64,000 nt of DNA from an uncultured Candidatus Saccharibacteria bacterium (GCA_964551495.1 CAZKCA010000004.1:15439-79438), one strand, 5' to 3'; numbered from the stretch's first letter, positions 29,805 to 61,974 are shown. Numbers and translations are program-made. Notes: generated from the sequence alone by a model not told the origin.

Positions 29805-29827
29805 CCCTGTAGTAGAATTTTAGTTTG

Positions 29828-30094: not shown

Positions 30095-30174
30095 AATCTA
30101 ACTAAAATTTCACTACAGGGTCATACCTATTTAGTATAACTCATTAAAAAAGGGTTCGCAAAAATACTAAAACC

Positions 30175-34792: not shown

Positions 34793-34821
34793 GATTAGGA
34801 TTTGGTCATAAATTAATAATG

Positions 34822-40734: not shown

Positions 40735-40736
40735 AA

Positions 40737-41327
40737 TTAATTTTTATCAAAAACAGACTGCCTAACAGTTATTGTTTTACCAAATGGACCACTGTTCCAA
40801 GAAACTCTAACAACTACAACAACCTCTTCTGCGGTTACTTGTTCAAATTGTATTTCTCTTCTAAATTTTGTTTCAATCCAACCGGCGGAAGTAGAATACC
40901 CATAAAGTTTTGTTGTCGAATTTTGCCTCAAAACAGAACAGGTTCCAAAACCTCCAGGACAAGCTGTCATTGTTTTAAGTGGAGAATCAATAATGCAAGT
41001 TTTTCCAAAATAACAAGGATCCGCTGGAACAGCAGACATCCCATTTAGCCAGTTAACTTCTGTTCCGCCAAATTCTAGGGCATAGAGATTTGCTATACCA
41101 TTATCATCTCTAATATTTCTGACATATTCCATAGCTTCCTGAATCAAATAAAAAGCAGTTACCTGATCTTTTGCAAAAGAAGATGTTGCTAAACCGTTTT
41201 GAACAGCAGTAAAAGTCCCAAGTATAGACATGGTCAGTATAGAAATAGCAATCAAGGTTTCTACTAAAGTAAAACCTAGTTTATTTTTATAACTGACAGT
41301 ATAATTTTTTTTATTTTTATTTACCAT
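40737..41327 (-). CDS. Type IV minor pilin (PilV-like).
   Basis: Prepilin motif KLGFTLVETLIAISILTM (G/FTLxE). Confidence 0.6.
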   Translation of the reverse strand: MVNKNKKNYTVSYKNKLGFTLVETLIAISILTMSILGTFTAVQNGLATSSFAKDQVTAFYLIQEAMEYVRNIRDDNGIANLYALEFGGTEVNWLNGMSAVPADPCYFGKTCIIDSPLKTMTACPGGFGTCSVLRQNSTTKLYGYSTSAGWIETKFRREIQFEQVTAEEVVVVVRVSWNSGPFGKTITVRQSVFDKN

Positions 41328-41329
41328 TT

Positions 41330-41881
41330 TTATATAAAATCTATTTGCCTTTGAGAAACAGTTGTTTGTAAGCTAAAAGATGATCTGGTGTCCAAATCTG
41401 GACCTGAATGACCTCTAATTAAAATTATTACTCTCGGTTGGTTTAAATTTCCTGGATAAACAGAAGACCCGAACACCCAAAAGGTTAGATCTTCTACTGT
41501 TATATCTGGAGATGTTACATAATAATCAACTCCAGCATCATTTCTTACAATTCTTCCTCCAGATAAACTATAAGTAACCTGTGTTCCTGTCTGAGATAAA
41601 AGGGTTAAAGAAGAAGCTCCTCCAGCACAATCCATTGGCTGACTTAAAACACCAGTAGTACCACAGTGGTAATTTACCCCAAACCTAATTTGTCTGGTCA
41701 TACCTTCTAAAGAAGAATTTAGGTTATCCATAACCGCTCTTAAGTTTTGAGACTTACGATTGGCATCCAAAACAGTCAAAATTGATCCCATACATATAAC
41801 CATAACCAAAGTGAAAACTGAGACAGAAACCATAAGTTCAACAAGTGTAAATCCTTTTTTGTTTTTTATATTTTTAAACAT
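41330..41881 (-). CDS. Type IV minor pilin (PilW-like).
   Basis: Prepilin motif KKGFTLVELMVSVSVFTLV. Confidence 0.6.
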   Translation of the reverse strand: MFKNIKNKKGFTLVELMVSVSVFTLVMVICMGSILTVLDANRKSQNLRAVMDNLNSSLEGMTRQIRFGVNYHCGTTGVLSQPMDCAGGASSLTLLSQTGTQVTYSLSGGRIVRNDAGVDYYVTSPDITVEDLTFWVFGSSVYPGNLNQPRVIILIRGHSGPDLDTRSSFSLQTTVSQRQIDFI

Positions 41882-41885
41882 AATT

Positions 41886-42491
41886 TTAATCTACTGAAAT
41901 CTGCCCTGTGTTTTCAATATTTATTGTAACAGTATTACCTAGTGGAGACCTCAAAACTATACCTCCTGTTTTGTATAATCCTCCAAAAAATTCATAACCT
42001 GGATTTGTAAATCTTATTTTAGCATCTGGATTAGGTCTTAAAAAGCTTATATTAATACCTATAACACTTGGGTTGACAGGACAATTTGAGGCACCGTTGA
42101 AAGGTGTGCCACAAACCTGACTTACATAGATTCCATTTCTAATTTGTTGTTTAGATATACACTCCCCAACACAATCATTAGTATGATCATATTTTTGATC
42201 ATTATTTAAATCAGCGTACAAATAATAAACAGTTGGATTGCTTATATCAAAATAAATACCATAAGCATTATCAAAATCCTGAGTACCCGAACCAGTTTCC
42301 CTAACGGAAACTCCATAAGCCTGAGACTCTCTTATTGCTATGGCTATTTCCTGGGCAGTAGAAGAAAGAGATAATCTGTCACTAAATTCCCTATAGCCAA
42401 ATAAAACAACAGCACTTATTAAAACAACGATAGCTATGACTATATTCATCTCTATAAGAGTAAATCCTTTTTGGTTAAAATTATTTTTCAT
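41886..42491 (-). CDS. Type IV minor pilin (FimT/GspH-like).
   Basis: Prepilin motif QKGFTLIEMNIVIAIVVLI. Confidence 0.6.
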   Translation of the reverse strand: MKNNFNQKGFTLIEMNIVIAIVVLISAVVLFGYREFSDRLSLSSTAQEIAIAIRESQAYGVSVRETGSGTQDFDNAYGIYFDISNPTVYYLYADLNNDQKYDHTNDCVGECISKQQIRNGIYVSQVCGTPFNGASNCPVNPSVIGINISFLRPNPDAKIRFTNPGYEFFGGLYKTGGIVLRSPLGNTVTINIENTGQISVD

Positions 42492-42492
42492 A

Positions 42493-43347
42493 CTATAAAA
42501 CTATAAGTGAAATAAACTTTTCTATACTAAATACGTCTATCTGACTAAAAAAGGCAATGAACGTTCCTAAAATTAAAAAAGGAGCAAAAGGAATTTCAGA
42601 TTTCATACCAACAAATTTTCTTTTATTTATTCTATCAAAAATAATCATCCCCACGCTCCACAAAGCTCCTACCCAAAAAGCAAAAATAATAGCTGAAATA
42701 CCAATAGCAAATCCCAAAAGTGCCCCTATACCAAATATCAGTTTTATATCTCCAAAACCAATTAATCTACCTTTTGACATAAGCCATAGTAAATAAAATG
42801 GGATAGAAAGTAAAAACGGAGATAAAGCATCAAAAATATCTATAATGTTTAAATCATTTATTTTGTAGCTTAAAAATAAAATAAGTTTGATTGAGGCAAT
42901 AAATATAAAAAGATAAACCAATCTATCTGGTATAATCATGTGTTTTAAGTCATACAGACCTATGACAACCAAAAGACTGAAGGAAACAATATATGATAAA
43001 AATAAAAATAAAATATAAGGAAAACTGTTTTCAAAAACTGAATTGTAAACTGGCAAATAATAGAGATGTCTAATAACGACGCCAACAAAAAGAAGTCCTA
43101 CCAAAACTTCCACAATAAAATACCTTGGGGATATCTGACTTTTACAAGATCTACATTTGCCTCCCAAAAATAAATAACTAAACAAAGGTATTAGTTCATA
43201 CCATTTAAGTTTTGAAGAACAATGAAAACACTCAGACCTACCGGAAACAATAGGCATACCACTGTTATATCTTAAAGCTACAACATTTAGAAAACTTCCA
43301 ACCAGAGCTCCTAAGAAAAAAACATATAAAAACAGAAAAGTCTCCAT
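42493..43347 (-). CDS. pilD: Prepilin peptidase (A24 family).
   Basis: N-terminal CxxC...CxxC zinc-binding segment (CFHCSS...CRSC), eight TM helices. Conserved-Asp region not confirmed. Confidence 0.75.
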   Translation of the reverse strand: METFLFLYVFFLGALVGSFLNVVALRYNSGMPIVSGRSECFHCSSKLKWYELIPLFSYLFLGGKCRSCKSQISPRYFIVEVLVGLLFVGVVIRHLYYLPVYNSVFENSFPYILFLFLSYIVSFSLLVVIGLYDLKHMIIPDRLVYLFIFIASIKLILFLSYKINDLNIIDIFDALSPFLLSIPFYLLWLMSKGRLIGFGDIKLIFGIGALLGFAIGISAIIFAFWVGALWSVGMIIFDRINKRKFVGMKSEIPFAPFLILGTFIAFFSQIDVFSIEKFISLIVL

Positions 43348-43459
43348 GTATATATTATATATGTTTAGAGAGATATTAAAAAATATAATTGGTGATAACT
43401 AGACAACAAAAAACCGGTGATACCGGTCTTTTGTTAGGTTTAAACCAAGATAATTTGGA

Positions 43460-43882
43460 TTAAGGACAAACTGTAACAGCTCCAGCCGGATTTGTTGTTA
43501 ACAATTTTGATTGACCTGTAGAGTCAACACACCATGAATCTGTTGGTTCTGTTTTTAGTTCTACCCAAGCAGCCCAAGCTGTTGCAGAATCTGCACATCT
43601 TGTAGCCAGTGTTCCAGCAGATCCAGCAGCTGTTATAGCAGCGTTAACAGCATTAGTCACTTGTGTGTTATCACAAACAGTTTCATAACTTCCATTAGCT
43701 CCATCATAAACCAACTCTGCTTGAGCACGAATATTGTTTAGGTTTGATTTAATGGCAGCATCAGCACCTTTACCTCTTGCTGTGTTTAGAGAAGCTAAAA
43801 CGACAGAAGAAAGAATACCGATGATTGCGATAACCACTAGAAGTTCGATAAGTGTGAAACCGCGACTATATGTTTTTTTCAT
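43460..43882 (-). CDS. pilA: Type IVa major pilin.
   Basis: From internal Met: MKKTYSRGFTLIELLVVIAIIGILSSVVLASL. C-terminal Cys pair (C...C) forms the D-region. Confidence 0.75.
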   Translation of the reverse strand: MKKTYSRGFTLIELLVVIAIIGILSSVVLASLNTARGKGADAAIKSNLNNIRAQAELVYDGANGSYETVCDNTQVTNAVNAAITAAGSAGTLATRCADSATAWAAWVELKTEPTDSWCVDSTGQSKLLTTNPAGAVTVCP

Positions 43883-44009
43883 AAATAATTTTGTATACAA
43901 ACTTATATAAAAACTGATAATAAAATCCTTTACGGATTGTCGTTTTTTAAACGAATACTTATATTATACTTTAATAATGGCTAGAAAAAAGGTTGCCTGT
44001 GGATAATCA

Positions 44010-44435
44010 CTAAGGGCAGTTTGTTGTAGTCGGAGCAGTATCTGAAAGTCTTGCTACCCCAGAACTGTCTATACACCAATAATCTACACCTGATGATCCA
44101 TTTACCAAGTTTTGACTTTTCAAAGGAGCTGCTGCAGCCCAGTTTGATGTGTTATCAAAGCAAACATCAGAAGTTGTGTTCCCTGCCCCTGTTTGACTTG
44201 CCTCATTCAATGCTCTTGTTACTGTAGTATCAGCACAGACATTATCATACGTCCCACTATCTAAATCATACCTAAGTTCGGCTGAAGCCCTTACTGAATT
44301 TAGGTTTGATTTAACAGCTGCATCTGCGCCTCTTTGTCTAGCCGAGTTTAGAGAAGCCAAAACAACAGAAGAAAGAACTCCTATAATAGCTATAACGACC
44401 AGTAACTCTATCAATGTAAAACCTTTATTTTTCAT
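44010..44435 (-). CDS. pilA: Type IVa pilin, second paralog.
   Basis: From internal Met: MKNKGFTLIELLVVIAIIGVLSSVVLASLNSAR. C-terminal Cys pair. Confidence 0.7.
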   Translation of the reverse strand: MKNKGFTLIELLVVIAIIGVLSSVVLASLNSARQRGADAAVKSNLNSVRASAELRYDLDSGTYDNVCADTTVTRALNEASQTGAGNTTSDVCFDNTSNWAAAAPLKSQNLVNGSSGVDYWCIDSSGVARLSDTAPTTTNCP

Positions 44436-44460
44436 TTTTGTAAAATAAACTGATAATATT

Positions 44461-45669
44461 TTATACTCCAGCAGAAGCAATGTTATAAATAGGCATAAGA
44501 ACAGAGGCTAGAAGTATTCCTACACCAAGACCCAATGCCACAATCATAATAGGCTCTATCAACCCGACAAGAGTATCTACCGCTGTAGTAACCTCTCTTT
44601 GATAAAACTTGGCTAAAGTTTTTAAAATATTTCCAAGCTCCCCTGTCTCTTCTCCAACTTTTATCATCTGGACCATTATACCTGGAATTTCTTTATACTG
44701 AGCAAAAGCACTAGATAGAGTTCCCCCACTTTTTACATCATATAAAGTTTGATCGATGATTTTTTTATAAACAGCATTATCTACCACCGCTCCTGTAATT
44801 TCCAAGGCTCTAAGTATAGGTATACCAGATATAATCATGGTGTTCATGTTGTCAGCAATCCTAGAAAGATAAAGCTTCCTATACAAATCACCCAAGTAAG
44901 GAATCTGAAGTTTTATTTCATCTAATCGATAAGCACCCTCTTCTGTTTGAGAATACTTCCAGACAAAAAAACCAATTATAACAGCACCTACAGCCATAAA
45001 CACACCGTAGTTCAAAAATAGATTACTTATACCTAAAACGATTTTAGTATAAATAGGGATTTCCTGTCCTGATTCAGTAAGCATGACAGATATTTTTGGA
45101 ATAATAACTGTAAGCATAAGTATCATAACGCCAACAAAAGTTGCAATAACAAAAGCTGGGTAAACTAAGGCATTTTTAGCTTTTGATGTTACTTCATAAG
45201 TCCTATCCAAATAATCAGCAAGATAATTAAAAGTATCATCCAATTTTCCTGATTCTTCTCCCGCTTTGACCATGTTCACATAAAAAGGAGAAAAAGCGTC
45301 TGGATGTTTGGACAAAGCATTTGAAATAGAAGAACCTCCTTGCAAATCATCTGCTATCTGGAATAAATTCTTTTGAAGTAAAGTATTGCTCGATTGTTCA
45401 GCTACCAATCTAAAAATTCTCAAGGCTGAAACTTGAGCTTGGAATAAAGTAGCCATCTGACGAGACAATATAACAATATCTTTATTAGATATTTTATTTA
45501 GAAAAGGAATTTCTATATTAAAAGGTTTTTTCTCTTCTGGAGCTTTTATATCTACTATTATAAGGTTTTGTTTTTGAAGCAAACCTATAGCACTATCAGC
45601 TCCAGGAGCCTCTATTGTTCCTTCTACTTTCTCACCTGTTTGTTTTAAAGCTTTATAAGAATACAGCAT
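44461..45669 (-). CDS. pilC: Type IV pilus inner-membrane platform protein (GspF family).
   Basis: Two GspF repeats, three TM helices, 402 aa. Confidence 0.8.
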   Translation of the reverse strand: MLYSYKALKQTGEKVEGTIEAPGADSAIGLLQKQNLIIVDIKAPEEKKPFNIEIPFLNKISNKDIVILSRQMATLFQAQVSALRIFRLVAEQSSNTLLQKNLFQIADDLQGGSSISNALSKHPDAFSPFYVNMVKAGEESGKLDDTFNYLADYLDRTYEVTSKAKNALVYPAFVIATFVGVMILMLTVIIPKISVMLTESGQEIPIYTKIVLGISNLFLNYGVFMAVGAVIIGFFVWKYSQTEEGAYRLDEIKLQIPYLGDLYRKLYLSRIADNMNTMIISGIPILRALEITGAVVDNAVYKKIIDQTLYDVKSGGTLSSAFAQYKEIPGIMVQMIKVGEETGELGNILKTLAKFYQREVTTAVDTLVGLIEPIMIVALGLGVGILLASVLMPIYNIASAGV

Positions 45670-45679
45670 AACTAAATAA

Positions 45680-46747
45680 TTATAACATTCTTTCTAATCC
45701 CCTTGGATTTTGTGAAAACATGTAAGCATTTTCAATAGTTATCTCGCCTTGTCTAACTAGTTCTGTAAGATACCTGTTTAAATCTATCATTCCAAATTCT
45801 GAACCAGTTTCTATAACAGAACCTATTTCATGTATCCTGTTTTCTCTAATCAAGTTGGCTACAGCATTATTGTTTATCAAAAGCTCACATGCTGGTATCA
45901 ATCCTCCAGAAACTCTTGGTATCAATCTTTGAGAAAATATTCCGAGTAAACTTGATGAGAGCTGAACCCTAATTTGGTTTTGTTGTTCTCCTGGAAAAGA
46001 GTCTATTATACGAGCAATGGTTTGAGCAGCATTATTTGTGTGCAATGTAGAAAACACCAAGTGTCCTGTTTCAGCAGCAGTCACAGCTGTAGCTATTGTC
46101 TCAGGATTTCTCATTTCACCTATCATAACCACATCAACATCTTGTCTAAAAAGATCTTTCAAGGCTTGAGCAAAATCTGGTGTATCTTCCCTAACTTCTC
46201 TTTGGTCAACCAAAGATTTTTTATCTTCAAATATATACTCTACAGGATCTTCTATAGTTATTATATGTTCTAATCTTCTTTCATTGACCATATCTATCAT
46301 TGCTGCCAAAGTGGTACTTTTACCTTGCCCTGTAGGACCAACAACCAAGAAAAATCCTTGTTGTTTTGTTGTAAAAGTTTCTAAGATAGAAGGTAGCTTT
46401 AGTTCTTCTAAAGTTTTTATTCTGTTTGAAATAAGACGCATAGCAATACCAACTTTACCTAACTGGAAAAATACATTGATCCTAAACCTTGCATCTTCTT
46501 TATACTGATAAGAAAAATCTATAGCTTTATCATTTAAAAACTTAGCCTTTTTTGGCTCATCCAAAAGCTCCTCCAAAATTCCCTTTATATCATTTTTTGT
46601 TATAACCTCATGTTTAACTATTGGTATTAAAGACCCGGCAACACGGATAATAGGAGCTTTACCTTCAGAAAGATGCAAATCTGAAGCATCTTCTTTCAAA
46701 ACAATTTGTATTAAATTTTCTAAAACTTTTTTATAATCAGCAGTCAT
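45680..46747 (-). CDS. pilT: Twitching-motility/retraction ATPase PilT.
   Basis: Walker A GPTGQGKSTT, Asp/His boxes, no N-terminal GSPII_E_N domain, 355 aa. Confidence 0.8.
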   Translation of the reverse strand: MTADYKKVLENLIQIVLKEDASDLHLSEGKAPIIRVAGSLIPIVKHEVITKNDIKGILEELLDEPKKAKFLNDKAIDFSYQYKEDARFRINVFFQLGKVGIAMRLISNRIKTLEELKLPSILETFTTKQQGFFLVVGPTGQGKSTTLAAMIDMVNERRLEHIITIEDPVEYIFEDKKSLVDQREVREDTPDFAQALKDLFRQDVDVVMIGEMRNPETIATAVTAAETGHLVFSTLHTNNAAQTIARIIDSFPGEQQNQIRVQLSSSLLGIFSQRLIPRVSGGLIPACELLINNNAVANLIRENRIHEIGSVIETGSEFGMIDLNRYLTELVRQGEITIENAYMFSQNPRGLERML

Positions 46748-47137
46748 TTATTTTTTATTATCTTTATAAATAGAAACAACCTGATCAACAACCTCTGAAG
46801 GTATAGTTGTCGCTTTTACAATATAACCAGCAACACCAAGCTCTTTTGCTTTATCCACCTCATCTGGTTGATTTGTAAGCATAACCACAATAGCCTCTGG
46901 GCAAAGTTTTTCTTTTCTAATATTTTCTAAAAGCTCTATACCATCCATTCCTGGCATTATTATATCCAAAACAATTATGTCATACTCCTCTCCTGCTCTT
47001 AGTTTATCTAAAGCATTTATACTGCTTGAAACAACAGTCACATCCAGATCTGCTTTCTTGAATTTCAAAGAATACATATCCAAAAGAAAACTATCGTCAT
47101 CTACAAGCATTATTTTTGTTTTTTCTTTTTCTGTCAT
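46748..47137 (-). CDS. Single-domain response regulator (CheY-like receiver).
   Basis: KIMLVDDDSFLLDMY...DIIVLDIIMPGMDGIELLENIRK, conserved Asp pocket, 129 aa. Confidence 0.75.
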   Translation of the reverse strand: MTEKEKTKIMLVDDDSFLLDMYSLKFKKADLDVTVVSSSINALDKLRAGEEYDIIVLDIIMPGMDGIELLENIRKEKLCPEAIVVMLTNQPDEVDKAKELGVAGYIVKATTIPSEVVDQVVSIYKDNKK

Positions 47138-47146
47138 ATAAGTTAA

Positions 47147-48910
47147 TTATAACGTATTTACCTCTTCAAAAGGAATTTCCTTGTGCATTGCTTTAAGTAT
47201 TGCATCTTCTTTCATTGAGAGCATTCCCTTTTGTCTAGCCAATTTAGTAATTTCAATTTCTGTAGGATTTTTCAAAACAACACTTTCTAACTCTTTATCC
47301 ATTTCCAGAACCTCCAAAACAGCCAACCTGCCTCTTGTTCCATTTGGACAATCTGAAGTCCCAGAAGCTTCGTAAACAGAATCTGTAAACTCTAATTGAT
47401 TTCTATATTTCTCTGGCAAATCAGCAAATTGTTTCTCTACCATCATTTGTATAGCCCCCTCAACAGGTATAGCCTTACCTGCTCCAGGACAAAGACCTTT
47501 AACAAGTCTCTGAGCAATAGCTAGTATCAGGGTTGGTGCAATAAGATAAGGATCTACACCCATATCTATAAGTCTTGGAATAACTCCAACAGCAGAGTTT
47601 GTGTGAATAGTAGAAAATACCAAGTGTCCTGTAAGAGCCGCTTGTATAGCCAACTGAGCAGTTTCTTTATCTCGAATCTCACCAACCATAATTATATCTG
47701 GATCTTGACGTAGAGTTGTACGAAGTCCTGAGGCAAAAGTATACCCTATCTCTGGTCTTATTTGTGACTGTGAAATACCTTCCATGTTGTACTCAACGGG
47801 ATCTTCCAAAGAAAGAACATTTTGATGTTCTCTATCAAGCTCATTTAGCATGGCATAAAGAGTTGTTGTTTTTCCCGAACCAGTTGGACCAGAAATAAGA
47901 ATTAGTCCATATGGTCTTTCTATTGCTTTATGAATTTTTTCCAAGTTACTTTTAGAAAGACCCAGCTTATCAAGAGGTCTAACTCCTTTTTCCTGATCCA
48001 AAATTCTCATCACAATTTTCTCTCCAAAATACGAAGGAAAAGTAGAGACACGAAAGTCAATTTTCCTACCCTCTATTCTTGCTGTAAAACGACCATCCTG
48101 AGGTTTTCTTTTTTCATCAAGTCTCATATTACAAAGGATTTTTATACGAGCCACAACAGCTGAATGGAGTTTGGAAGGTAGAACCAAACTTGTGTTCATA
48201 ACACCATCTACACGAAATCTAACTTTCACATTTTCTCTCCAGGGTTCTATGTGAATATCGGAAGCGTTTCCATCTGTTGCATATCTCAAAATAGTAGCCA
48301 CAATTTTTGTAACAGGAGCATCTTCATTTATTTTTCCATCTTTCCCACCAGAATCCCCAGAATCCGGAGAATCTCCAGAATCATGACTTTCATCATCATT
48401 ATCATCTCCTTTTTTCTTTTTATTAACTTCTTCCTCTATTTTTAGTTCTGTTTCTAGTTCAGACAACGCCTTAGAAACTTCACCCGTCAAACCCTTGTAT
48501 GAAGAAAATATTTTATTAAAATCTGTTTCAGAAATTAAAAATATCTTAAAAGGCATTTCTAATTTTGCTGAAATAAAATTCAAAGCATCTCTGGCCTCAA
48601 TATTGTCAGGATTAACCATCCCAACCTCCAAAACTCCATCTTCTACACCAATCGGAATAAATTGATAATGAGATGCTGATTCTTCTGGTATGTACTCCAA
48701 AATCTTACCTGGTACATCCTTACCTTCCATGTTTCTTGTTGGTACACCTAAATACTCTCCTTGCACTTCCAAAATATCTGAAGCAGAAAATCCTTTTTGT
48801 ATTAAAACTTGTTCAGGAGTTAAACCAAGTCTAGCAGATTCTTTACTGACCTGTTTTAACTGATCATCTGAAATTTTTCCCTTTTGGAGTAATAGGTTTA
48901 AAATATCCAT
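47147..48910 (-). CDS. pilB: Type IV pilus assembly ATPase PilB (GspE family), with an acidic Ser/Asp low-complexity insert.
   Basis: N-terminal GSPII_E_N domain, Walker A GPTGSGKTT, tetracysteine motif region CPGAG...C. Insert KKKKGDDNDDESHDSGDSPDSGDSGGKDGK. Confidence 0.85.
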   Translation of the reverse strand: MDILNLLLQKGKISDDQLKQVSKESARLGLTPEQVLIQKGFSASDILEVQGEYLGVPTRNMEGKDVPGKILEYIPEESASHYQFIPIGVEDGVLEVGMVNPDNIEARDALNFISAKLEMPFKIFLISETDFNKIFSSYKGLTGEVSKALSELETELKIEEEVNKKKKGDDNDDESHDSGDSPDSGDSGGKDGKINEDAPVTKIVATILRYATDGNASDIHIEPWRENVKVRFRVDGVMNTSLVLPSKLHSAVVARIKILCNMRLDEKRKPQDGRFTARIEGRKIDFRVSTFPSYFGEKIVMRILDQEKGVRPLDKLGLSKSNLEKIHKAIERPYGLILISGPTGSGKTTTLYAMLNELDREHQNVLSLEDPVEYNMEGISQSQIRPEIGYTFASGLRTTLRQDPDIIMVGEIRDKETAQLAIQAALTGHLVFSTIHTNSAVGVIPRLIDMGVDPYLIAPTLILAIAQRLVKGLCPGAGKAIPVEGAIQMMVEKQFADLPEKYRNQLEFTDSVYEASGTSDCPNGTRGRLAVLEVLEMDKELESVVLKNPTEIEITKLARQKGMLSMKEDAILKAMHKEIPFEEVNTL

Positions 48911-48939
48911 AAACTATATTATTAAAAAAAACAAAATAA

Positions 48940-49233
48940 TTATCTACCGAACTGAGAAAACGGATTGTCTCTACCTTGAATTTCTTGACTCCTAGGTGAC
49001 CCCGGCTCACGAAGGCTTCTAAACAAAGGACTTGAAAAAACAGAGGCATTTATAACTGTCATATCAAATGTTTCAGCTAATTGTATTATATCTTGTGTAG
49101 TCTGGTCAGCTTCCGAGGTTAATTGATCTGTTGGAACAGGCGCACTTTTAAAGAAAGAGTTGTATATTATAAACCCCGCTATTCCAAACATAAATATTGC
49201 TATTGTTGCTTTTTGTGTTTGTGATAATGCCAT
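48940..49233 (-). CDS. Small pilus-cluster protein (possible PilP-like), hypothetical.
   Basis: N-terminal TM. Lies between pilO and pilB. Confidence 0.35.
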   Translation of the reverse strand: MALSQTQKATIAIFMFGIAGFIIYNSFFKSAPVPTDQLTSEADQTTQDIIQLAETFDMTVINASVFSSPLFRSLREPGSPRSQEIQGRDNPFSQFGR

Positions 49234-49237
49234 ATGT

Positions 49238-49795
49238 TTAACGTAAAATATATGTGTTAGCTTCGACCGAAAAATTTAAGACTGATGAATTTTGATCATC
49301 ACTACCGGCAGATATAGAAACTGAATAAACATCTATAATCTGAACATTTGACTCCAGATCTTTCAAAAAACTTATAAACTGAGGATAGGTACTACTAATA
49401 TCAAAGGTTATTCTAACTTTTTTAAAGGGAGATAAGTTAGAATCTTCTAGTTGAGCCTGAGAACTATTTTCTTCTGGTATATTTGAATTAAAAGAATCTA
49501 TAGAGGTATTATATCTTGAAGCTAAATAATTCAAATCATTGACCAAACCTGGACCATCAAAAGTAGGAGGTACAACTTTTTTCATTTTCTCTATATCTTC
49601 TAATGATATAGAATTGTATTGACCAAGCAATTCCTCTCTTTTTTGAGATATATTTTTGGCTTTATCTAATACATCAGCATACTTATTTTTTTCTTCTCTG
49701 GTTAATTGCATTTCTGCATATAAAGGAGAAATATACATATAGTATGCAGCTATACATATGATGATTATAATAAATGGTGTTAAGGTTGATTTCAT
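49238..49795 (-). CDS. pilO: Type IV pilus assembly protein PilO-like.
   Basis: N-terminal TM followed by a coiled coil. Position downstream of pilN. Confidence 0.55.
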   Translation of the reverse strand: MKSTLTPFIIIIICIAAYYMYISPLYAEMQLTREEKNKYADVLDKAKNISQKREELLGQYNSISLEDIEKMKKVVPPTFDGPGLVNDLNYLASRYNTSIDSFNSNIPEENSSQAQLEDSNLSPFKKVRITFDISSTYPQFISFLKDLESNVQIIDVYSVSISAGSDDQNSSVLNFSVEANTYILR

Positions 49796-49799
49796 AATT

Positions 49800-50447
49800 T
49801 TATTCCTCTATTAATTCACTCTCATTAACTATGATTTCTGTATTCTCCGAAGAAACAATATTATCTACTAAATTTTTTTCATAAGATAATATACTTTTAT
49901 CTATTATGGCACTAAAATTAGCTTCTACCGCTCCCGATTCTGTTACGATAAAATCTGAAAACTCTGGGTTTATAATAAAACTTTGGTTTTTAAAAATTTC
50001 GGATTGTTGAGCAAAAGCTGCATAACTAGCACCTTGCATAACAATCTCTACTAAAACTTGACCACTTATTTCTGAATAAGAAAATTCAATGAACTGTATT
50101 GGTCTAACTGTTAATGATTGTAGAGAATCAAATAATGCAGATACAGATATGTGGTTTTGTAGTAACTGATTTGTTGATTTAATTGAGTTACTAAAATCAA
50201 TAAGTTCATTTATTGTTTCAGGCTCAAAAGCTTCTCTGGTGTCTGCTATATCCTGCTTCAATCTAACAATTTCATTGTTTAAATTATTTTTATAAAAATA
50301 CAAACCTCCCCAAGCTCCCAACGTAAGAATAAATAGGATAGTTGCTACAGTAGAAAACAAATTAAAAGATTTGACTCTTTTAAAAGAATCTTCTCTTGGA
50401 GATATTGTATTTTTAGGAATGAACGATGTTTGAAATTTAGGTTCCAT
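49800..50447 (-). CDS. pilN: Type IV pilus assembly protein PilN-like.
   Basis: Short cytoplasmic N-terminus, TM helix, coiled-coil. Position after pilM. Confidence 0.55.
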   Translation of the reverse strand: MEPKFQTSFIPKNTISPREDSFKRVKSFNLFSTVATILFILTLGAWGGLYFYKNNLNNEIVRLKQDIADTREAFEPETINELIDFSNSIKSTNQLLQNHISVSALFDSLQSLTVRPIQFIEFSYSEISGQVLVEIVMQGASYAAFAQQSEIFKNQSFIINPEFSDFIVTESGAVEANFSAIIDKSILSYEKNLVDNIVSSENTEIIVNESELIEE

Positions 50448-50491
50448 ACTTTACTAAATTATATTACACACAAAAACAAAATGCTATAAAG

Positions 50492-51622
50492 TTATTCCAC
50501 TTCCTGTAACTTTCTCAAGGCTAAACCAACAGCTACAGTAAATTGAGGACCTGTTTGTCTTAAAATATCTTCTAGAAAAGCCGGAGTGACAACTTTTGAA
50601 AAAGGATCTCCGCTTATAACCTCTGTCTGAAAGCTTTTTTGAGCAACATCTTTTATACCAATCAAAGCACTTCCCCCTCCTACCAAAAATATCTTGCTTA
50701 CATTTTTACTGTATTTTTTTTCATAAGCCAGAACAACCCGATTTGCTTCTGAAAATATATAATCTAAAGTCACAGTAATAACATCTTTTATCCCCATATT
50801 TTCTGGAGAAAGAGATAGGCCTTTTTCTCTCTTCATTATTTCAGCTTCAGCAAACGAAATACCTAATGCTTTAGATAAAGCCTGAGTTATATTATAAGAC
50901 CCATTGTTTATCGTATGAGAAGCTCTAAGTATCCCCTTTTCTACTATATAAATTTTAGTCGTCATTGCCCCCATATCCAAAATCATCACAGGAGTAACAT
51001 CTTGATCCAAAACAGACCTCATTGTACTAAATATTTCTATTTCAAAAAAATCAGCCTGCAAACCACTTTGAGTAGTTATTTTTTTATATTTTTCTATAGT
51101 TGAATTATGCAAAGCCACAACCAATACCTCTAATCTTGGTGGTATTGGTCTACCATCTAGACCCATTTTTTGATTTGGATCTGATTCAGGATTTTTATCT
51201 TGTGGAATCAGTGACCAATCTATAACAACTTCAGACATTGGAACCGGGATATACTTCCTGGCTTCAATAGGAACCATATTTGATAATTCTTTAATTGGAA
51301 CCACTGGAAAATCTATAACAGAAACTAAACTGGAGGCAAAAGGGATTGAGAGTCCAGCAACTCTTGATGTTATATTTACTTCTTTTTCAACTAATAAATC
51401 ATTAATTGCCTCTATAACTTTGTCCAAAGGAAGATTTGTTGCCTCTCCTACACTACCTTTTGCATAAGGACCCAAGGAAAGCTCTCCATAAGTCTCTAAG
51501 ATAGCCCTTCCGTTTTTTCTAGAAAGTTGCACAACTTTCAATGAAGATGTACCAATATCTAGACCAATAACACTTGGACTCTGCCTATTAAAAAGCTTGG
51601 TGAAAAAATTCGCCATATTCAT
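50492..51622 (-). CDS. pilM: Type IV pilus assembly ATPase-fold protein PilM.
   Basis: Actin-like fold with SVIGLDIGTSSLKVVQL N-terminal phosphate-1 motif, 376 aa. Confidence 0.75.
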   Translation of the reverse strand: MNMANFFTKLFNRQSPSVIGLDIGTSSLKVVQLSRKNGRAILETYGELSLGPYAKGSVGEATNLPLDKVIEAINDLLVEKEVNITSRVAGLSIPFASSLVSVIDFPVVPIKELSNMVPIEARKYIPVPMSEVVIDWSLIPQDKNPESDPNQKMGLDGRPIPPRLEVLVVALHNSTIEKYKKITTQSGLQADFFEIEIFSTMRSVLDQDVTPVMILDMGAMTTKIYIVEKGILRASHTINNGSYNITQALSKALGISFAEAEIMKREKGLSLSPENMGIKDVITVTLDYIFSEANRVVLAYEKKYSKNVSKIFLVGGGSALIGIKDVAQKSFQTEVISGDPFSKVVTPAFLEDILRQTGPQFTVAVGLALRKLQEVE

Positions 51623-51646: not shown

Positions 51647-52318
51647 TTGTATAATATATATATGTTGAAAAGTATAAAGGATTTTGTATCCAAAGTACTA
51701 GATTCAATCTTCCCAAATAGGTCAGATTTCCAAAAAATAAACTCCTTATCAACAGAAGACATAAACTCTCTACCTAAAGCAGAAAATTTGGAAAAATTTG
51801 ATTGGATTTTTTCTATTTTTAAATACAAAAATGAAATCGTTCGATCGATAATCTGGGAACTTAAATATAGGCAAAATACAAAACCAATAGAATACATAGG
51901 TAAGATAATGTATGACTCGATAATAGCTCAAATATCAGATATGCTTATATTCGACAATGATGCTATTTTTACAATAATACCCGTCCCCATGTATCCCCTA
52001 CGAAAATTTGAAAGAGGTTTTAACCAAAGCGAAATAATAGCAAAAGCAATAATAGCAAATGATAATGAAAGAAAGCTTTTATATGCACCTCAATGGTTAG
52101 AAAAAATAAAAGATACCCAAAAACAAAGTAGAAGTGAAAGTAAAGAAGAAAGATTAAAAAACCTAAAAGATTGTTTTAGGGCAAATCCTAAGGTTAATAA
52201 TTACTATGTTTTTTTAATAGATGACGTAACAACAACTGGTAGTACCCTAATTGAAGCCAAAAAAACCCTGATGGAAGCTGGTGCAAAAGATGTTTTTGGA
52301 TTTACCATAGCTCATTAA
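51647..52318 (+). CDS. comFC: ComF family phosphoribosyltransferase-domain protein (competence protein ComFC-like).
   Basis: C-terminal PRTase motif VFLIDDVTTTGSTLIEAKKTL. The true start may be an internal Met. Confidence 0.65.
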   Translation: MYNIYMLKSIKDFVSKVLDSIFPNRSDFQKINSLSTEDINSLPKAENLEKFDWIFSIFKYKNEIVRSIIWELKYRQNTKPIEYIGKIMYDSIIAQISDMLIFDNDAIFTIIPVPMYPLRKFERGFNQSEIIAKAIIANDNERKLLYAPQWLEKIKDTQKQSRSESKEERLKNLKDCFRANPKVNNYYVFLIDDVTTTGSTLIEAKKTLMEAGAKDVFGFTIAH

Positions 52319-52416
52319 TATGATAATCTGTTACCTATTGGAGAGTTGGCTTCAGCCCAAGGCTGATCCGCCTCGGGCGGAGAGTGGTCGAAAACTTTTC
52401 TAACATTAATAGTCAT

Positions 52417-52662
52417 ATGTATTATGTATACATATTAAAAAGCAAAATAAATTCAAAACTATACAAAGGTTTAACTTCTGACTTGAAAAGAAGAGTTAAA
52501 GAACATTGTTCTGGAAATTCAAAATTTACTAGTGAAAATGGACCTTGGGAACTAGTTTATTATGAAGCTTTTAATAAAAAAGATGATGCGATAAGAGAAG
52601 AAAAGTTTTTAAAGTCAGGAAAAGGACGAGAAAGAATAAAATACTTGTTAAACATTAAATAA
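52417..52662 (+). CDS. GIY-YIG nuclease-domain protein (UPF0213/YhbQ-like), paralog of 29828-30094.
   Basis: From internal Met: MYYVYILKSKINSKLYKGLTSDLKRRVKEH...YYEAF. Ends 4 nt before tRNA-Ser. Confidence 0.65.
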   Translation: MYYVYILKSKINSKLYKGLTSDLKRRVKEHCSGNSKFTSENGPWELVYYEAFNKKDDAIREEKFLKSGKGRERIKYLLNIK

Positions 52663-52666
52663 TTAT

Positions 52667-52753
52667 GGAGACGTGGCTGAGTGGTCGAAAGCACCTCACT
52701 GCTAACGAGGCAGGGTCTAAAAGCCCTCCAGGGTTCGAATCCCTGCGTCTCCG
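52667..52753 (+). tRNA. tRNA-Ser(GCU), class II with long variable arm.
   Basis: GGAGACG-TG-GCTGAGTGGTCGAAAGC...loop CTGCTAA...variable CAGGGTCTAAAAGCCCTCC-AGGG-TTCGAAT-CCCTG-CGTCTCC-G. Confidence 0.75.
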
Positions 52754-52755
52754 CA

Positions 52756-52911
52756 GGAGAAATTTAACAAAGTTAAATTTAGTAGAGCAGGTTTTGTAAT
52801 CAAAACCGTCGCGAGGATTCGAAGCCCGATTGAGGTATTTTATGAGCTTACGAAATAAAATACCCAATTGGGGTACTGAAACTGTAAGTTTCGAATCCCT
52901 GCGTCTCCGCA
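52756..52911 (+). repeat. tRNA-abutting structured element, copy B.
   Basis: Hairpin gguauuuuau-GAGCUUACGA-aauaaaauacc (compensatory to copy A). Module UACUGA-aac-UGUAA-guu-UCGAAUCC. Ends with cctgcgtctccgca, an exact copy of the tRNA-Ser 3' end. Confidence 0.55.
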
Positions 52912-53087
52912 ACAGCAGATTGAGTTGAGTACATCTCAACAAAATCTGATGTCGGTAGAAGTTAGGGATGAGAAAGACGGAGGCGGTATACAAGCGAGCA
53001 AAGCGAGGCTTGTCGCCGAGTCGGGGTCGAAAGTTCTTATGAGCGGAGCGAATTAGAAACTTGTGACCGAATCCCTGCGTCTCCGCC
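52912..53087 (+). repeat. tRNA-abutting structured element, copy C (divergent), in tandem with B.
   Basis: GC-richer. Hairpin aaguucuuau-GAGCGGAGCGA-auuagaaacuu. Ends with gaatccctgcgtctccgcc, a third copy of the tRNA-Ser 3' end. Confidence 0.45.
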
Positions 53088-53093
53088 AAAAAT

Positions 53094-53114
53094 AAAACAC
53101 CCTAAGGGTGTTTT
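53094..53114. terminator. Bidirectional intrinsic terminator (aaaacaccc-taa-gggtgtttt).
   Basis: 9-bp stem with an A-run and a T-run. Lies between element C and the end of the protease gene. Confidence 0.65.
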
Positions 53115-53124
53115 ATTTTTTCTA

Positions 53125-55623
53125 TTATCTATTTTTTCCACCTCCTCCCCCAGAATCTGCCGCATTTTTAATAATAGAAACGGATGTTTCAGATGAATTT
53201 GAGACCGGACCAGCTTTATCAAAAGCTTCAACTTTTATGGTGTGTGTTCCTGCAGATAAGTTATTTGCAGATACACTAGCATCACACCTTGTTGTGTTGT
53301 AACAATTTTTCAAAACAACATCATTTAATTTAACTACAATTTGAGATATTCCACTAGAATCCGAAGCCGTTGAGCTTATGCTTACCTTTCCTCTAGATAC
53401 AGTTGTTCCATTTGTAGGTTTGCTTATTTTTACAACAGGAGGAGTGACATCTGAAGTCTGAACACTAATAGATGCAGATGCAGATGTTTTGTAACTAGTA
53501 AATGAGCTATTTTGGGCTGTTTGAGTGATTGTGTAAGACGTCCCTGTTAAAGTAGTAGGAAGAGTAACTATCAAAGATCCTGTTATGGATTGACCGCTAG
53601 CCAAAGAATGACTTATTGAGCTAGGTGTCTGTGTAAATCCGGAAGGTAAAGTAGGTATTACAGAATATGTCTGATTTGGACAATTTGAAGAATTGTTATT
53701 TTTAAGTGTATAACTAAATGATGTGGATTGGCCGGCAAAAAGAGAAGCTGAGGTAGGTGTCATGGTAAAAGAAGGATTTGTCTGAGTGCATGGCAATTCA
53801 CCAAAAGTTACATTTACAGTTGCCCCAGTAGTAGCAACAGCAACATTTGTAATACTTATAGACTTTGATGAGTCTGTAAATGTCCTACCTACTGCCAAAG
53901 GAGCATCGTCAAATACACTTGTACTAGGAACAGTATCTATCAACTTACTTTTATCAACAACATTGTAATCTGAAGCAATTCTTATTATTAATCCATTTGT
54001 AGCATAAGAACTGATATTTGCATCAAAACCTATTGGTTGACGGAATTCAACATAATAATAATCAAGAGGTTTACCATCTGATCCAATGTTTCTTGGGATC
54101 CTAAGAGATTGTATCCCTGATGAAGAAGATTCAATTGGAACCAAAGTATAATTACCACCAGAGTTTCTATCTAAAGTTTTTGTGTTTGTTGAATTTAGCC
54201 AATTTAAAGAATAGACGGTAGTTCCTTTATTATAGTTGCTCATATGTTTCCAACTACTAGATCTACCCATTACATTATACATATCTCCATACTCACCTAA
54301 GCTACAATTATAATTTTCACTTATAGAAACAGGAACACCTCCTTCAGTACAAGACCAGGAACTTGCATGATGAGCACCTAAATTGTGTCCTATTTCGTGC
54401 ATTATAGTACCCTGTGCAGTGGTATTTATCCATGAAGAAGCAGGTGCTCCTCCAATATTTCCTAACCCAGACCAACCGCAAGAAGACAGGTATGGAAATA
54501 TATACATTTTCATATCATAACCAGTCAAATCTACGCCAGAATTTCTTAATTGAGTATCAGCTGCATTGGACCATGTTCTATACATTGAACTACAGCTAGT
54601 ATTATCGTAAGGAATTGTTACATAACCATAAACATCACCATCAGTATTGTTTTTACCTACCAAATCCATTTTACCGAAAGAATTTTCTCTATAATATGCT
54701 CTAGCTGAATTTGGATTTGTAAAAATAGTAGCCCTCGCACTATCTACTGTAAATGATGTCCTAGTATCATTCTGCCAATTGATAAGTATAACTGCCAACT
54801 TCTTTTTTACAGGTGTTGTAGTTTGAGCTTCTGCCTTATTTAACTTAAACAAACTAGATATTTTTGAAAAAAATTTCTCTAATTTAGAGTCTTTTTGATT
54901 AACAGAGACACCTTTACTTCTGTTAGGAGAAGATATCAAATTTATTAAGTTTTCACTTGTTGCAATATTATCATCCAAAACAACACCATCTATAGTTACA
55001 AGATCATCAGTCATAAGGTTTGGCTCACCTTTCATATAAACTTTATATCTTTTATTTGTTTTCTCTTCAGTCAAATAAAATTCATCTACAGAAAATCCTG
55101 TGTCATAATCCCCATAGTGGACAACTAGGTACTCGAATTTTCCTGAAACCTTTTTCCTTTCTTCCAAATTTTTTATTGCATCAGCTGACCCTCCCTTAAC
55201 AACATTTGATGACAAAGTATTACTCAATACATAATCCGGGTCATTTTTCATCTTGTCCAATACCAAGTCTTTCCTTAGCAGGACATACTCATTTATTCTT
55301 TTGGCTGCAACTGGTTTTTTATTAGCAGGGGCTAATTTTACTTCATTGACTAAATTTAATATGACAACATTATAATCCTCAATTTTCTTAAAAGGAGGAA
55401 CTGTTATATTTTCATCTGAAGTTTCTTCGGTTGCTATAACATTAGCAAGAAGATTCCTTTCCTCATATAAAGATCCTATGTCTATAGCGTAGAGTAATAC
55501 AAAAGATAATAATGTTGATGTAATCAAAAACAAACCCCAGTGAACTTTATTGTAATTTTCATTATTATGAATACTTGAATAAAGTTTGCTAGATTCTAAT
55601 AATTTATTGTGGATTTTTTTCAT
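53125..55623 (-). CDS. Membrane-anchored secreted metzincin zinc metalloprotease with C-terminal Ig-like Ser/Thr-rich repeats.
   Basis: HEIGHNLGAHH (HExxHxxGxxH), N-terminal TM, 832 aa, C-terminal GGGGGKNR. Confidence 0.6.
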   Translation of the reverse strand: MKKIHNKLLESSKLYSSIHNNENYNKVHWGLFLITSTLLSFVLLYAIDIGSLYEERNLLANVIATEETSDENITVPPFKKIEDYNVVILNLVNEVKLAPANKKPVAAKRINEYVLLRKDLVLDKMKNDPDYVLSNTLSSNVVKGGSADAIKNLEERKKVSGKFEYLVVHYGDYDTGFSVDEFYLTEEKTNKRYKVYMKGEPNLMTDDLVTIDGVVLDDNIATSENLINLISSPNRSKGVSVNQKDSKLEKFFSKISSLFKLNKAEAQTTTPVKKKLAVILINWQNDTRTSFTVDSARATIFTNPNSARAYYRENSFGKMDLVGKNNTDGDVYGYVTIPYDNTSCSSMYRTWSNAADTQLRNSGVDLTGYDMKMYIFPYLSSCGWSGLGNIGGAPASSWINTTAQGTIMHEIGHNLGAHHASSWSCTEGGVPVSISENYNCSLGEYGDMYNVMGRSSSWKHMSNYNKGTTVYSLNWLNSTNTKTLDRNSGGNYTLVPIESSSSGIQSLRIPRNIGSDGKPLDYYYVEFRQPIGFDANISSYATNGLIIRIASDYNVVDKSKLIDTVPSTSVFDDAPLAVGRTFTDSSKSISITNVAVATTGATVNVTFGELPCTQTNPSFTMTPTSASLFAGQSTSFSYTLKNNNSSNCPNQTYSVIPTLPSGFTQTPSSISHSLASGQSITGSLIVTLPTTLTGTSYTITQTAQNSSFTSYKTSASASISVQTSDVTPPVVKISKPTNGTTVSRGKVSISSTASDSSGISQIVVKLNDVVLKNCYNTTRCDASVSANNLSAGTHTIKVEAFDKAGPVSNSSETSVSIIKNAADSGGGGGKNR

Positions 55624-61696: not shown

Positions 61697-61733
61697 AGGG
61701 GTATTATACAGATGATTTTAAAAAGGCACACCA

Positions 61734-61901
61734 GGATTCGACCCTTACAGGGTCAGTACTGAGCACCAGGACTCTCCCTCGAAATTTTTTCGTCGCCACT
61801 CAAAAATTTCTGGGCACCGGTTTGTCGACAAACTCTGGTGAGTTTGTAAACCGACAAACCGTTCGAATCCTTAATACAAAGCTACGCTTTGTACTTACGT
61901 G
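61734..61901 (-). repeat. tRNA-abutting structured element, copy E (downstream of tRNA-Ile).
   Basis: On the minus strand: hairpin plus U-run, then the 10-bp stem cgguuugucg/cgacaaaccg (compensatory to copy D) enclosing acaaacuc-ugguga-guuuguaaac, then UACUGA-ccc-UGUAA-ggg-UCGAAUCC. It ends with cuggugugcc, a copy of the tRNA-Ile T-arm/acceptor 3' end. Confidence 0.55.
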
Positions 61902-61974
61902 TGCACGTACCAGGATTCGAACCTGGGACCGGTCGTGTATAAGACGACTGCTCTACCAACTGAGCTATACGTGC
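61902..61974 (-). tRNA. tRNA-Ile(UAU).
   Basis: GCACGTA-TA-GCTC-AGTTGGTA-GAGC-A-GTCGT-CTTATAC-ACGAC-CGGTC-CCAGG-TTCGAAT-CCTGG-TACGTGC-A. Fully canonical cloverleaf. Confidence 0.8.

Follow-up and report, generated by a model that had tools for sequence, protein, structure and literature searches.

Tandem non-coding elements 3' of a tRNA-Ser gene in a Saccharibacteria bacterium: probable members of a superfamily of tRNA-associated insertion elements

A 64,000 nt stretch of DNA from an uncultured Candidatus Saccharibacteria bacterium (GCA_964551495.1, CAZKCA010000004.1:15439-79438), referred to below as the window, contains two tandem non-coding elements, B and C, directly 3' of a tRNA-Ser(GCU) gene. 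The data presented here lead us to propose, with a probability of roughly 0.6, that B and C are unrelated members of a superfamily of non-coding, strand-specific insertion elements, approximately 55-250 nt in length, situated 3' of the tRNA genes of Patescibacteria. That proposal builds on the insertion polymorphism, family membership, tRNA-derived frame, strand-specific structure, multiplicity of cores and turnover documented below. A small GIY-YIG nuclease gene adjoins the same tRNA gene on its 5' side and is considered separately.

The tRNA-Ser(GCU) gene was located by ARAGORN and Rfam at 52667-52754/52753 (+), with G73 at 52753 and C74 at 52754, and is uninterrupted. Its last 18 nt (X1, 52737-52754), which span G57 of the T-loop to C74, constitute an 18-mer, GAATCCCTGCGTCTCCGC, that has exactly three matches in the window (52737-52754, 52893-52910 and 53069-53086; 0 expected) and terminates the tRNA gene, element B and element C alike. 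Element B therefore occupies positions 52755-52910 (+, 156 nt) and element C positions 52911-53086 (+, 176 nt), each bounded by copies of the 18-mer, and the exact junctions read ...CGTCTCCGC/B...CGTCTCCGC/C...CGTCTCCGC/CAAAAATAAAACA. The original prediction, made from the sequence by inspection, had described just such a tandem pair, each member ending in the tRNA-end repeat; that description and the two lengths were confirmed, but the limits it gave (52756-53087) are off by one base, the true ones being 52755-53086. The array is followed by the rest of the encoded CCA and an intrinsic terminator (53087-53120, +; terminator proper 53088-53120). This is the sole + strand intrinsic terminator in 52200-53250, an interval in which a scan detected no sigma-70-like promoter.

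The locus was compared with those of related strains. Neighbour homologs were searched for with ComF and MurF; exact-sequence look-ups of the 832-aa protein encoded on the other side of the locus and of the GIY-YIG protein returned nothing. Relatives of the ComF gene (51647-52318) were recovered at 84%, 83% and 66% identity. In L209/L210 (83%), a tRNA-Ser gene 100% identical to that of the window is situated 45 nt after ComF and is followed directly by CCA and a terminator, and then by the end of a homolog of the 832-aa gene. The same genes thus lie on both sides of a locus that has neither B nor C, nor the GIY-YIG gene, nor the tRNA 5' fragment that accompanies the latter in the window. CCA and a terminator also follow tRNA-Ser directly in L206 (84%), where B and C are again absent. 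Because a relative's identical tRNA-Ser directly precedes CCA and a terminator, B and C are insertions, or constitute an insertion/deletion polymorphism. Since the three ComF lineages are approximately equidistant, parsimony slightly favours a single gain in the lineage of the window over two precise losses. The comparison suggested in the original prediction, which held that B and C were separate insertions regenerating their target, thus yields no inserts in L209/L210 and L206 and two in the window, in agreement with that view. Metagenome contigs of close relatives (L204-L208 and L211-L213) end after ComF or at tRNA-Ser, or start inside an element; frequent contig ends at such places are expected of multi-copy repeats.

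When 90 elements were read side by side, a common frame was apparent. The element begins after tRNA position 73/74, and the host tRNA is intact. The 5' part of the frame comprises an optional hairpin (hp0), 6-10 nt complementary to the acceptor 3' strand, and a hairpin (hp1). These are followed by 10-13 nt complementary to the T-stem 3' strand and T-loop (anti-T), always ending ...TCGAA, and by a long hairpin (hp2). The 3' part consists of a (G)TACT junction, a further hairpin (hp3; GANNC-TGTAA-GNNTC) and, as the terminal part of the element, a direct copy of tRNA positions ~55-74 (X2). Near the 5' end, then, each element carries the reverse complement of host tRNA positions ~54-73 (anti-X), frequently split by a hairpin at the acceptor/T-stem boundary. 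The original prediction had recognized the direct repeat of the tRNA end correctly, but had overlooked this inverted copy. Pairing of anti-X with X2 on the tRNA-sense strand gives a helix resembling an acceptor/T-arm, by which the core is closed. Since target sequence forms the end of the element, the target is restored by every insertion, giving arrays like B and C.

The longest complement to the tRNA end had a mean length of 10.3 nt, against 5.3 nt in shuffled sequence. Anti-X follows the actual tRNA, including unusual T-loops (TTCAAAT -> ATTTGAA; TTCGAGC -> GCTCGAA), and the complement still fits the real tRNA where X2 differs, is interrupted or has been lost. The test of which copy anti-X matches, X1 or X2, suffers from bias owing to insertions in X2 and to the alignment to X1, and reliance was placed mainly on the unusual T-loops. 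X2 likewise tracks variation in the local T-loop, as with TTCAAGT in L214. At some loci, perfect palindromes with arms of 22-27 nt extend from the tRNA end across hp0 to the anti-acceptor segment.

The frame is supported by covariation. In hp3, both free pairs form in 71/71 and 71/71 elements, with four Watson-Crick pair types at each position. Each of the eight basal pairs of hp2 forms in 58-67 of 71 elements, while shuffle means ranged from 32 to 47 and no shuffle reached the observed values. The tRNA-sense strand folds more stably than its reverse complement in 80/90 elements (p = 4e-14), and G.U pairs number 292 in the former and 149 in the latter. This strand-specific folding and the excess of G.U pairs indicate that the element acts as a single strand of tRNA sense; since DNA hairpins also tolerate G.T pairs, that strand may be RNA or DNA. 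B and C are themselves far more stable than shuffled sequence (z = -6.2 and -4.1, respectively).

Element B belongs to what is termed here type 1, defined by the core TACTGA-NN-CTGTAAG-NN-TCGA, which B has in common with the first part of element A (after tRNA-Met) and with element E (after tRNA-Ile), and whose stem covaries. The original prediction had noted the likeness of B to A and E, and in outline this holds. In B, hp0 lies at 52760-52780, hp1 at 52790-52807, anti-T (CGCGAGGATTCGAA, the complement of the tRNA T-loop and T-stem 3' strand) at 52810-52823, hp2 at 52824-52873, the TACT junction with hp3 (GAAAC-TGTAA-GTTTC) at 52874-52892 and X2 at 52893-52910, all on the + strand. A scan of one genome per species found the type-1 pattern at at least 120 loci, nearly all of them in metagenome-assembled genomes of Patescibacteria; just 3 matches were found in 2.9 million viral contigs. 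For 97 of 124 motif matches, a tRNA on the same strand ends 85-300 nt upstream, and 12 others have no available upstream sequence. The host tRNAs include those for Ser, Ile, Cys, Lys, Arg, Leu, Ala, Tyr, Gln, Val, Pro, Gly, Glu, Asn, Met and His. The bases 3' of the motif's TCGA replicate the 3' end of the upstream tRNA, often exactly. The TCGA of the search pattern is itself read as tRNA-derived, because X2 follows the local T-loop variants.

Two side observations concern type-1 copies. Some cores without an ARAGORN tRNA upstream (L022, L034, L009 and L081) still have a tRNA-3'-end-like X2, e.g. TCCTACCCGCGGAGC, and may follow intron-containing tRNA-Asn or tRNA-Asp genes missed by standard tools (cf. 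PMC13011429). Many copies (L001, L014, L025, L030-L032, L041, L050, L063, L066, L073, L082, L083, L091, L103 and L116) carry in the X2 T-loop either a mini-hairpin of 12-14 nt (NNNN-TAMT-NNNN, e.g. AAGCGTACTCGCGG and ACATGTACTCATGG), the stem of which covaries, or an AT dinucleotide. This looks like a nested insertion into the pseudo T-loop.

Element C is unrelated to B outside the frame. Its parts (+) are hp0 (52913-52951), a degenerate anti-X (CGGTAGAAGTTAGGGAT, 52953-52969), a box (GAGAAAGACGGAG, 52970-52982), hairpin a (52983-53017), a second box (GAGTCGGGGTCGAA, 53018-53031), hairpin b (53032-53061), TGTGACC (53062-53068) and X3 (53069-53086), the third copy of the tRNA end. A listing of tRNA-flanked inserts without the type-1 core, followed by a pattern search, placed C in a second family (type 2) with at least 17 members and the boxes ...TCGAA-AGMCGGAG-hairpin-GAGKC-GGGGTCGMR-hairpin-TGTGACCGA-X2, the core also being given as GGGGTCG...GTGACCGA. 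C matches these boxes one by one, and its nearest relative is the copy in L055; another member, L123, has a compensatory GGCC/GGCC change in the GGTC/GACC pair. The G+C contents are 0.40 for B, 0.50 for C and 0.34 for the window. The original prediction had taken the higher G+C content and divergence of C as signs of an older copy. Membership of a separate family, whose own conserved boxes recur at no fewer than 17 loci, overturns that interpretation; the G+C content of C reflects its family and not its age.

Elements were found at five of the six tRNAs in the window, and at least four core types are present in this genome. The exception is tRNA-Thr, situated 8 nt before prfB. Element A (34392-34571, +), after tRNA-Met, has a type-1 part (anti-T 34427-34437; core motif 34488-34508), which is followed by a second short unit ending in a terminal tRNA-Met 3' copy (34551-34571, +). 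Element E (61725-61900, -) follows tRNA-Ile(UAU) and combines the type-1 core with a different, longer middle section. Element D (26010-26141, -), after tRNA-Gln, is of type 3, a core common to L148; in it, 17 nt (26101-26117) are perfectly complementary to the tRNA end, and a 3' copy (26010-26024, -) precedes CCA. The element (34820-35015, -) after a second tRNA-Met (35016-35087, -) has a terminator-like hp0, an anti-acceptor segment GCGCGGAC, an hp1 with a CTGGGAG loop (34935-34960), an anti-T CAGGATTTGCAC (34923-34934) and a 3' copy AAATCCTGGTCCCTACA (34820-34836), all on the - strand; its middle hairpin resembles that of E. The occurrence of several core families on one frame in one genome favours a population of elements over a single cellular RNA.

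Evidence for turnover was also obtained. The hp2 sequences of A and B are 84% identical over 86 nt, while hp1, hp3 and the frames of these two elements differ. In L114, the tRNA-Leu and tRNA-Lys elements have the same unusual hp1. At the tRNA-Ile gene by murF, element E is present in the window and, as an orthologous copy, in L213 (MurF 84%), while L214 (MurF 77%) has a type-1 element with nearly the same hp2 as A and B; the contig of L212 (MurF 93%) begins inside an element similar to the one in L214. As a side observation, the tRNA-Ile at 61901-61974 (-) has the anticodon UAU, and the same tRNA is present in L003, L033, L075 and L214. Most bacteria have, in place of tRNA-Ile(UAU), a CAU tRNA modified with lysidine.

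How might such elements spread? Under the proposal favoured here they would be selfish, moving or being exchanged as single-stranded nucleic acid of tRNA sense, with anti-X pairing with the 3' segment of the tRNA gene and so fixing the insertion point, much as guide and target pair in IS200/IS605. Alternatively or additionally, they might be transferred by DNA uptake and recombination, with the conserved tRNA and X2 serving as portable homology arms. Palindrome-templated correction after arrival could then keep anti-X complementary to the functional tRNA. A type IV pilus/competence cluster adjoins the tRNA-Ser locus (40225-51622, with pilins bearing an N-methyl motif and PilM/N/O, plus ComF at 51647-52318); it bears on the question only in pointing to a capacity for DNA uptake. 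The GIY-YIG gene would be a separate, protein-coding cassette that likewise duplicates part of the tRNA, on the 5' side.

Several observations weigh against this proposal. Pfam searches of 20 small open reading frames (ORFs) of the window revealed no transposase, integrase, HUH enzyme or reverse transcriptase, nor was any such gene linked to the elements. Cut-and-paste movement leaves unexplained the interleaving of element parts (hp1 and the core) with tRNA parts (anti-acceptor, anti-T and X2) on a new tRNA, and the correction step that would account for it is conjectural. The polymorphism at the tRNA-Ser locus may instead stem from precise loss by recombination between direct repeats. The tRNA-Ser gene, B and C form one predicted transcription unit; the apparent orthologues L063 and L082 display compensatory changes that would also fit a functional RNA; and every frame seen contained a core, with anti-T and X2 always separated by at least 64 nt.

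The principal alternative, considered unlikely, is that the elements are structured RNAs of benefit to the host, processed from the tRNA transcript and serving as tRNA-specific mimics of the acceptor/T-arm. The U-G-U-A-A loop of hp3 would rebuild the tRNA elbow, and the mimic would be handled by RNase P, RNase Z, RNase III or the CCA-adding enzyme, with a role in tRNA 3'-end maturation, in quality control or as a decoy. Such a role is consistent with the covarying stems and strand-specific folding, with acceptor and T-stem sequences that fit the cognate tRNA, with the presence of an element at five of the six tRNAs in the window, with the single terminator shared by tRNA-Ser, B and C, and with compensatory changes at the same tRNA across species (L063/L082; E in L213). 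Yet B and C are absent after an identical tRNA-Ser in relatives, and type 1 was found at none of 105 tRNAs in loci that had been selected by way of their GIY-YIG gene; the elements are therefore dispensable and limited to certain lineages. At least four unrelated cores in one genome, and tandem arrays of differing types without obvious functional logic, would not be expected of such an RNA. X2 is often broken or truncated while anti-X remains perfect. Moreover, a terminator-like hp0 lies between the tRNA and the element in 37/87 loci (43%), which argues against an obligatory co-transcribed RNA function. The two explanations may also be combined, in that a mobile element could have a fold that serves its own propagation.

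The small GIY-YIG gene (GIY1, 52417-52662, +) encodes an 81-aa protein consisting of a GIY-YIG domain alone (UPF0213-like; PF01541, E 4e-17), with the UPF0213 structures 1zg2 and 1ywl as its PDB relatives. As had been predicted, its stop codon lies 4 nt upstream of tRNA-Ser and a paralog lies about 1 kb from tRNA-Thr. This paralog, GIY2 (29828-30094, -), is 45% identical to GIY1 (PF01541, E 7e-17) and is 961 nt from tRNA-Thr, with prfB between. Both GIY1 and GIY2 belong to the UPF0213 subgroup of the GIY-YIG superfamily; at 81-88 aa they comprise the catalytic domain alone and have no added DNA-binding domain of the kind seen in I-TevI and SegB. The NCBIfam intron-endonuclease model gave 21.8 bits against a 56-bit cutoff, and GIY1 is free-standing. 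GIY1 is absent in L209 and L206.

GIY1 is flanked on its left by a copy of the 5' part of tRNA-Ser (52340-52395, +). Positions 1-12 are represented by GGAGAGTTGGCT (52340-52351, +), an allele that differs from the resident tRNA, and positions 13-26 by 52382-52395 (+); two GC hairpins, TCAGCCCAAGGCTGA and TCCGCCTCGGGCGGA (52352-52381, +), interrupt the copy. A 12-nt D-loop copy upstream of the gene had been predicted at 52367-52378; the copy exists, but at 52382-52393 (GAGTGGTCGAAA), as part of this 26-nt copy of tRNA positions 1-26. The 5' copy with covarying D-loop hairpins also occurs in L121, L124, L127, L122 and L144, and is absent in L209. Two observations on alleles and arrays may be added. 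The window's upstream fragment GGAGAGTTGGCT equals the intact tRNA-Ser allele of L206 (1213-1290), and the L206 upstream fragment equals the window's intact allele, GGAGACGTGGCT (52667-52678); judged from these sequences, the swap suggests exchange of the cassette or of the tRNA between strains. Tandem units of a tRNA 5' fragment and a GC double hairpin, with or without a GIY-YIG ORF, precede an intact tRNA-Ser in L122 (3930-4360), L144 (3920-4370, where the repeated unit includes ~15 nt of upstream flank) and L124 (60-450), and L158 (930-1330) has tandem units of a GIY-YIG gene and a tRNA-Leu 3' copy.

A metagenome scan with GIY1 yielded 472 relatives; the following locus counts refer to the best 80 of these 472. 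A same-strand tRNA starts 2-60 nt after the GIY-YIG stop codon in ~47 loci, and lies just upstream of the gene in ~12 more. By a rough estimate, which is not a computed control, only a few percent of random genes would have such a tRNA neighbour. The tRNAs located 3' of the genes are mostly tRNA-Ser of any anticodon, with Cys, Gly, Arg, Asn and Val also represented. Of the cassettes upstream of a tRNA, 26/39 have the first 12 nt of that tRNA duplicated ahead of them; of those downstream of a tRNA, 6/16 have a copy of its 3' part behind them, which in L158 is interrupted in the T-loop. GIY2 (29805-30120 with its flanks, -) is bordered by 21-nt inverted repeats (CCCTGTAGTGAAATTTTAGTT / AACTAAAATTCTACTACAGGG) and an ATGA direct repeat, and is inserted exactly at the ftsE start codon; in L048 and L097, prfB and ftsE are adjacent without GIY2. 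Several other cassettes away from tRNAs have flanking inverted repeats of 13-21 nt, and repeats of this kind border the GIY-YIG genes of L163, L168 and L183-L186. The GIY-YIG genes therefore look like separate insertion cassettes in tRNA units, with partial tRNA duplications or inverted repeats of their own.

The original prediction had also raised a homing-like role for the minimal GIY-YIG proteins in spreading the elements. In this explanation, which we regard as rather improbable, they would be nucleases of the homing type whose cleavage of tRNA genes, in T-loop DNA for instance, promotes the copying of elements like B and C. Their genes do lie in tRNA transcription units at ~59/80 loci, often with the flanking partial tRNA copies just described; the closest clade is nearly always beside tRNA-Ser; GIY1 is missing from the empty-site genome; the window has both GIY-YIG genes and many elements; and GIY-YIG genes occur in non-intron insertions in rRNA genes of the Candidate Phyla Radiation (CPR; PMC11270868). 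The positional tie to tRNAs is real, but no local tie to type-1 elements was seen: a type-1 element was found at none of the best 80 of 472 GIY-YIG loci, and a GIY-YIG gene at 2 of the 120 type-1 loci listed (of at least 120 in all). This co-occurrence check leaves the proposed role unsupported. In addition, the protein is only 81 aa long and has no DNA-binding domain, the intact tRNA beside the gene would still be a target, and classical homing proceeds from allele to allele at one site, which explains neither anti-X nor the spread across tRNAs.

It is very improbable that B and C are decayed remnants (att sites, resembling cis-mobilizable elements, CIMEs) of larger, integrase-carrying elements that insert at tRNA 3' ends. 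The 18-nt direct repeat of the tRNA 3' segment, present three times and flanking the inserts, and the tandem accretion are indeed as in integrase-mediated insertion. However, B and C are non-coding, no tyrosine or serine recombinase and no remnant of a larger element was found in them or among the 20 small ORFs, and remnants would not be expected to form compact, conserved, covarying families at many tRNA types, to contain an inverted copy of the target or to be so nearly absent from viral contigs. That B and C are ordinary non-mobile spacer, or a local tandem duplication of one sequence, is scarcely credible: the tandem triple 18-mer would fit it, but B and C are unrelated apart from the frame, many relatives of each lie at other tRNAs in other genomes, and the existence of an empty site already contradicts it.

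Other identities were considered and rejected. With Rfam 15 only the tRNA was found at threshold, and a permissive scan (E up to 10, 52300-53150) gave nothing meaningful over B and C. The elements are too small for group I introns, match no intron model and leave the tRNA uninterrupted. Comparison by eye of the type-1 three-way junction with the hammerhead core (CUGANGA...GAAA) and box C/D motifs revealed that the required GA and UGAUGA positions are absent. A retroelement-like tRNA-primer binding site does not fit, as anti-X stops short of the tRNA 3' terminus and is interrupted by hp1, and the 20 small ORFs included no reverse transcriptase. An origin in spontaneous inverted triplication, with a core captured afterwards, is not supported, given that no core-less frame was seen, the gap from anti-T to X2 never falling below the 64 nt mentioned above. 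A simple 4-bp TCGA target duplication in a directly duplicated T-arm is contradicted by the left copy, which is the true complement even of non-palindromic T-loops (TTCAAAT -> ATTTGAA). Miniature inverted-repeat transposable elements have inverted termini that are conserved from copy to copy and a target-site duplication that is short and fixed; here the inverted termini (anti-X and X2) vary by copy and fit the local tRNA, and the repeat is ~18-20 nt long.

Comparison with known systems reveals partial likenesses. IS200/IS605 elements are strand-specific and hairpin-rich and insert 3' of a defined target that is not disrupted; an internal sequence by the foot of a hairpin, a guide of 4-5 nt, pairs with the target, and the right end resembles the target, so that excision is seamless. 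B and C, like these elements and their non-autonomous derivatives, the palindrome-associated transposable elements (PATEs), have strand asymmetry (80/90), hairpins (hp1 and hp3) near the ends, a start after position 73/74 of an intact target, and an internal complement to the target. The complement here is ~20 nt and tRNA-specific, however, the right end is an exact target copy, and no Y1 (HUH) transposase was found among the 20 small window ORFs searched with Pfam. Integrase-mediated integration at tRNA 3' ends, as practised by integrative and conjugative elements (ICEs), prophages and CIMEs, duplicates the 3' segment, regenerates the tRNA and gives tandem arrays by repeated insertion. The elements described here share these features but differ in that no integrase was found, in their length of 55-250 nt, in the inverted target copy and in forming folded families at nearly every tRNA type. 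Bacterial Y RNA, mascRNA and viral tRNA-like structures also carry, at the 3' end of a longer RNA, a helix resembling an acceptor/T-arm; in those cases the sequence is fixed, whereas each copy here mimics the neighbouring tRNA and its T-loop is closed by base pairing.

The closest parallels in the literature are two classes of insertion in the same phylum. CPR rRNA genes hold short (<200 bp), ORF-less insertions, as well as GIY-YIG-encoding ones, which belong neither to the group I nor to the group II introns; they occupy the tip or the base of stem-loops, form a stem by pairing of their ends and are thought to be excised by RNase III (PMC11270868). B and C resemble them in being short and ORF-less, with stem-pairing ends. 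A long closing stem is present in B and C and is built from copies of the tRNA end, but these elements follow an intact tRNA, whereas the rRNA insertions lie inside the rRNA. That study makes no mention of tRNA-linked insertions. The second class consists of self-splicing group I introns in the anticodon loops (position 35/36) of Patescibacteria tRNAs, which match Rfam intron models (PMC13011429). They are selfish structured RNA elements tied to tRNA genes, but sit inside the tRNA, while B and C lie outside it and match no Rfam family. For GIY1, a parallel is provided by SegB of phage T4, a free-standing GIY-YIG homing endonuclease in a tRNA cluster, with proven site-specific cleavage and extra DNA-binding parts (PMC2330249). 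Both are embedded among tRNA genes and display presence/absence polymorphism between relatives; GIY1, in contrast to SegB, is an 81-aa UPF0213-type domain known here from sequence. The literature searched contained no description of the tRNA-abutting elements, no functional study of the UPF0213 family and no report of tRNA-linked UPF0213 genes.

Direct repeats at 13763-18164 (70-86% identity, period ~1.18-1.28 kb) lie within large minus-strand ORFs at ~13.5-18.5 kb; their products are probably repeated protein domains, and they have no relation to the tRNA elements.

The elements seem to be a major unnoticed repeat class in the tiny genomes of Patescibacteria, and they disrupt metagenome assemblies, several related contigs ending or beginning inside them. 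The uncharacterised but widespread UPF0213 small GIY-YIG proteins appear here as insertion cassettes within tRNA transcription units, and the D-loop or T-loop DNA of tRNA genes may be proposed as their substrate. Small non-autonomous insertion elements at structured-RNA genes are already known; there is nevertheless a real chance that the mechanism in this case is new. No standard mechanism of transposition or integration explains a frame of this design around interchangeable cores. It may be suggested, tentatively, that these are self-targeting mobile elements whose ~20-nt antisense segment reads the tRNA 3' end (as single-stranded DNA or in an R-loop), or else that each is an RNA mimic purpose-built for its tRNA. 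If the former were true, insertion would be carried out by host enzymes or by an unrecognised small nuclease, and the elements would represent an enzyme-poor, guide-bearing parasite of tRNA genes. Their design may point to a guide- or recombination-based colonisation of conserved RNA genes.

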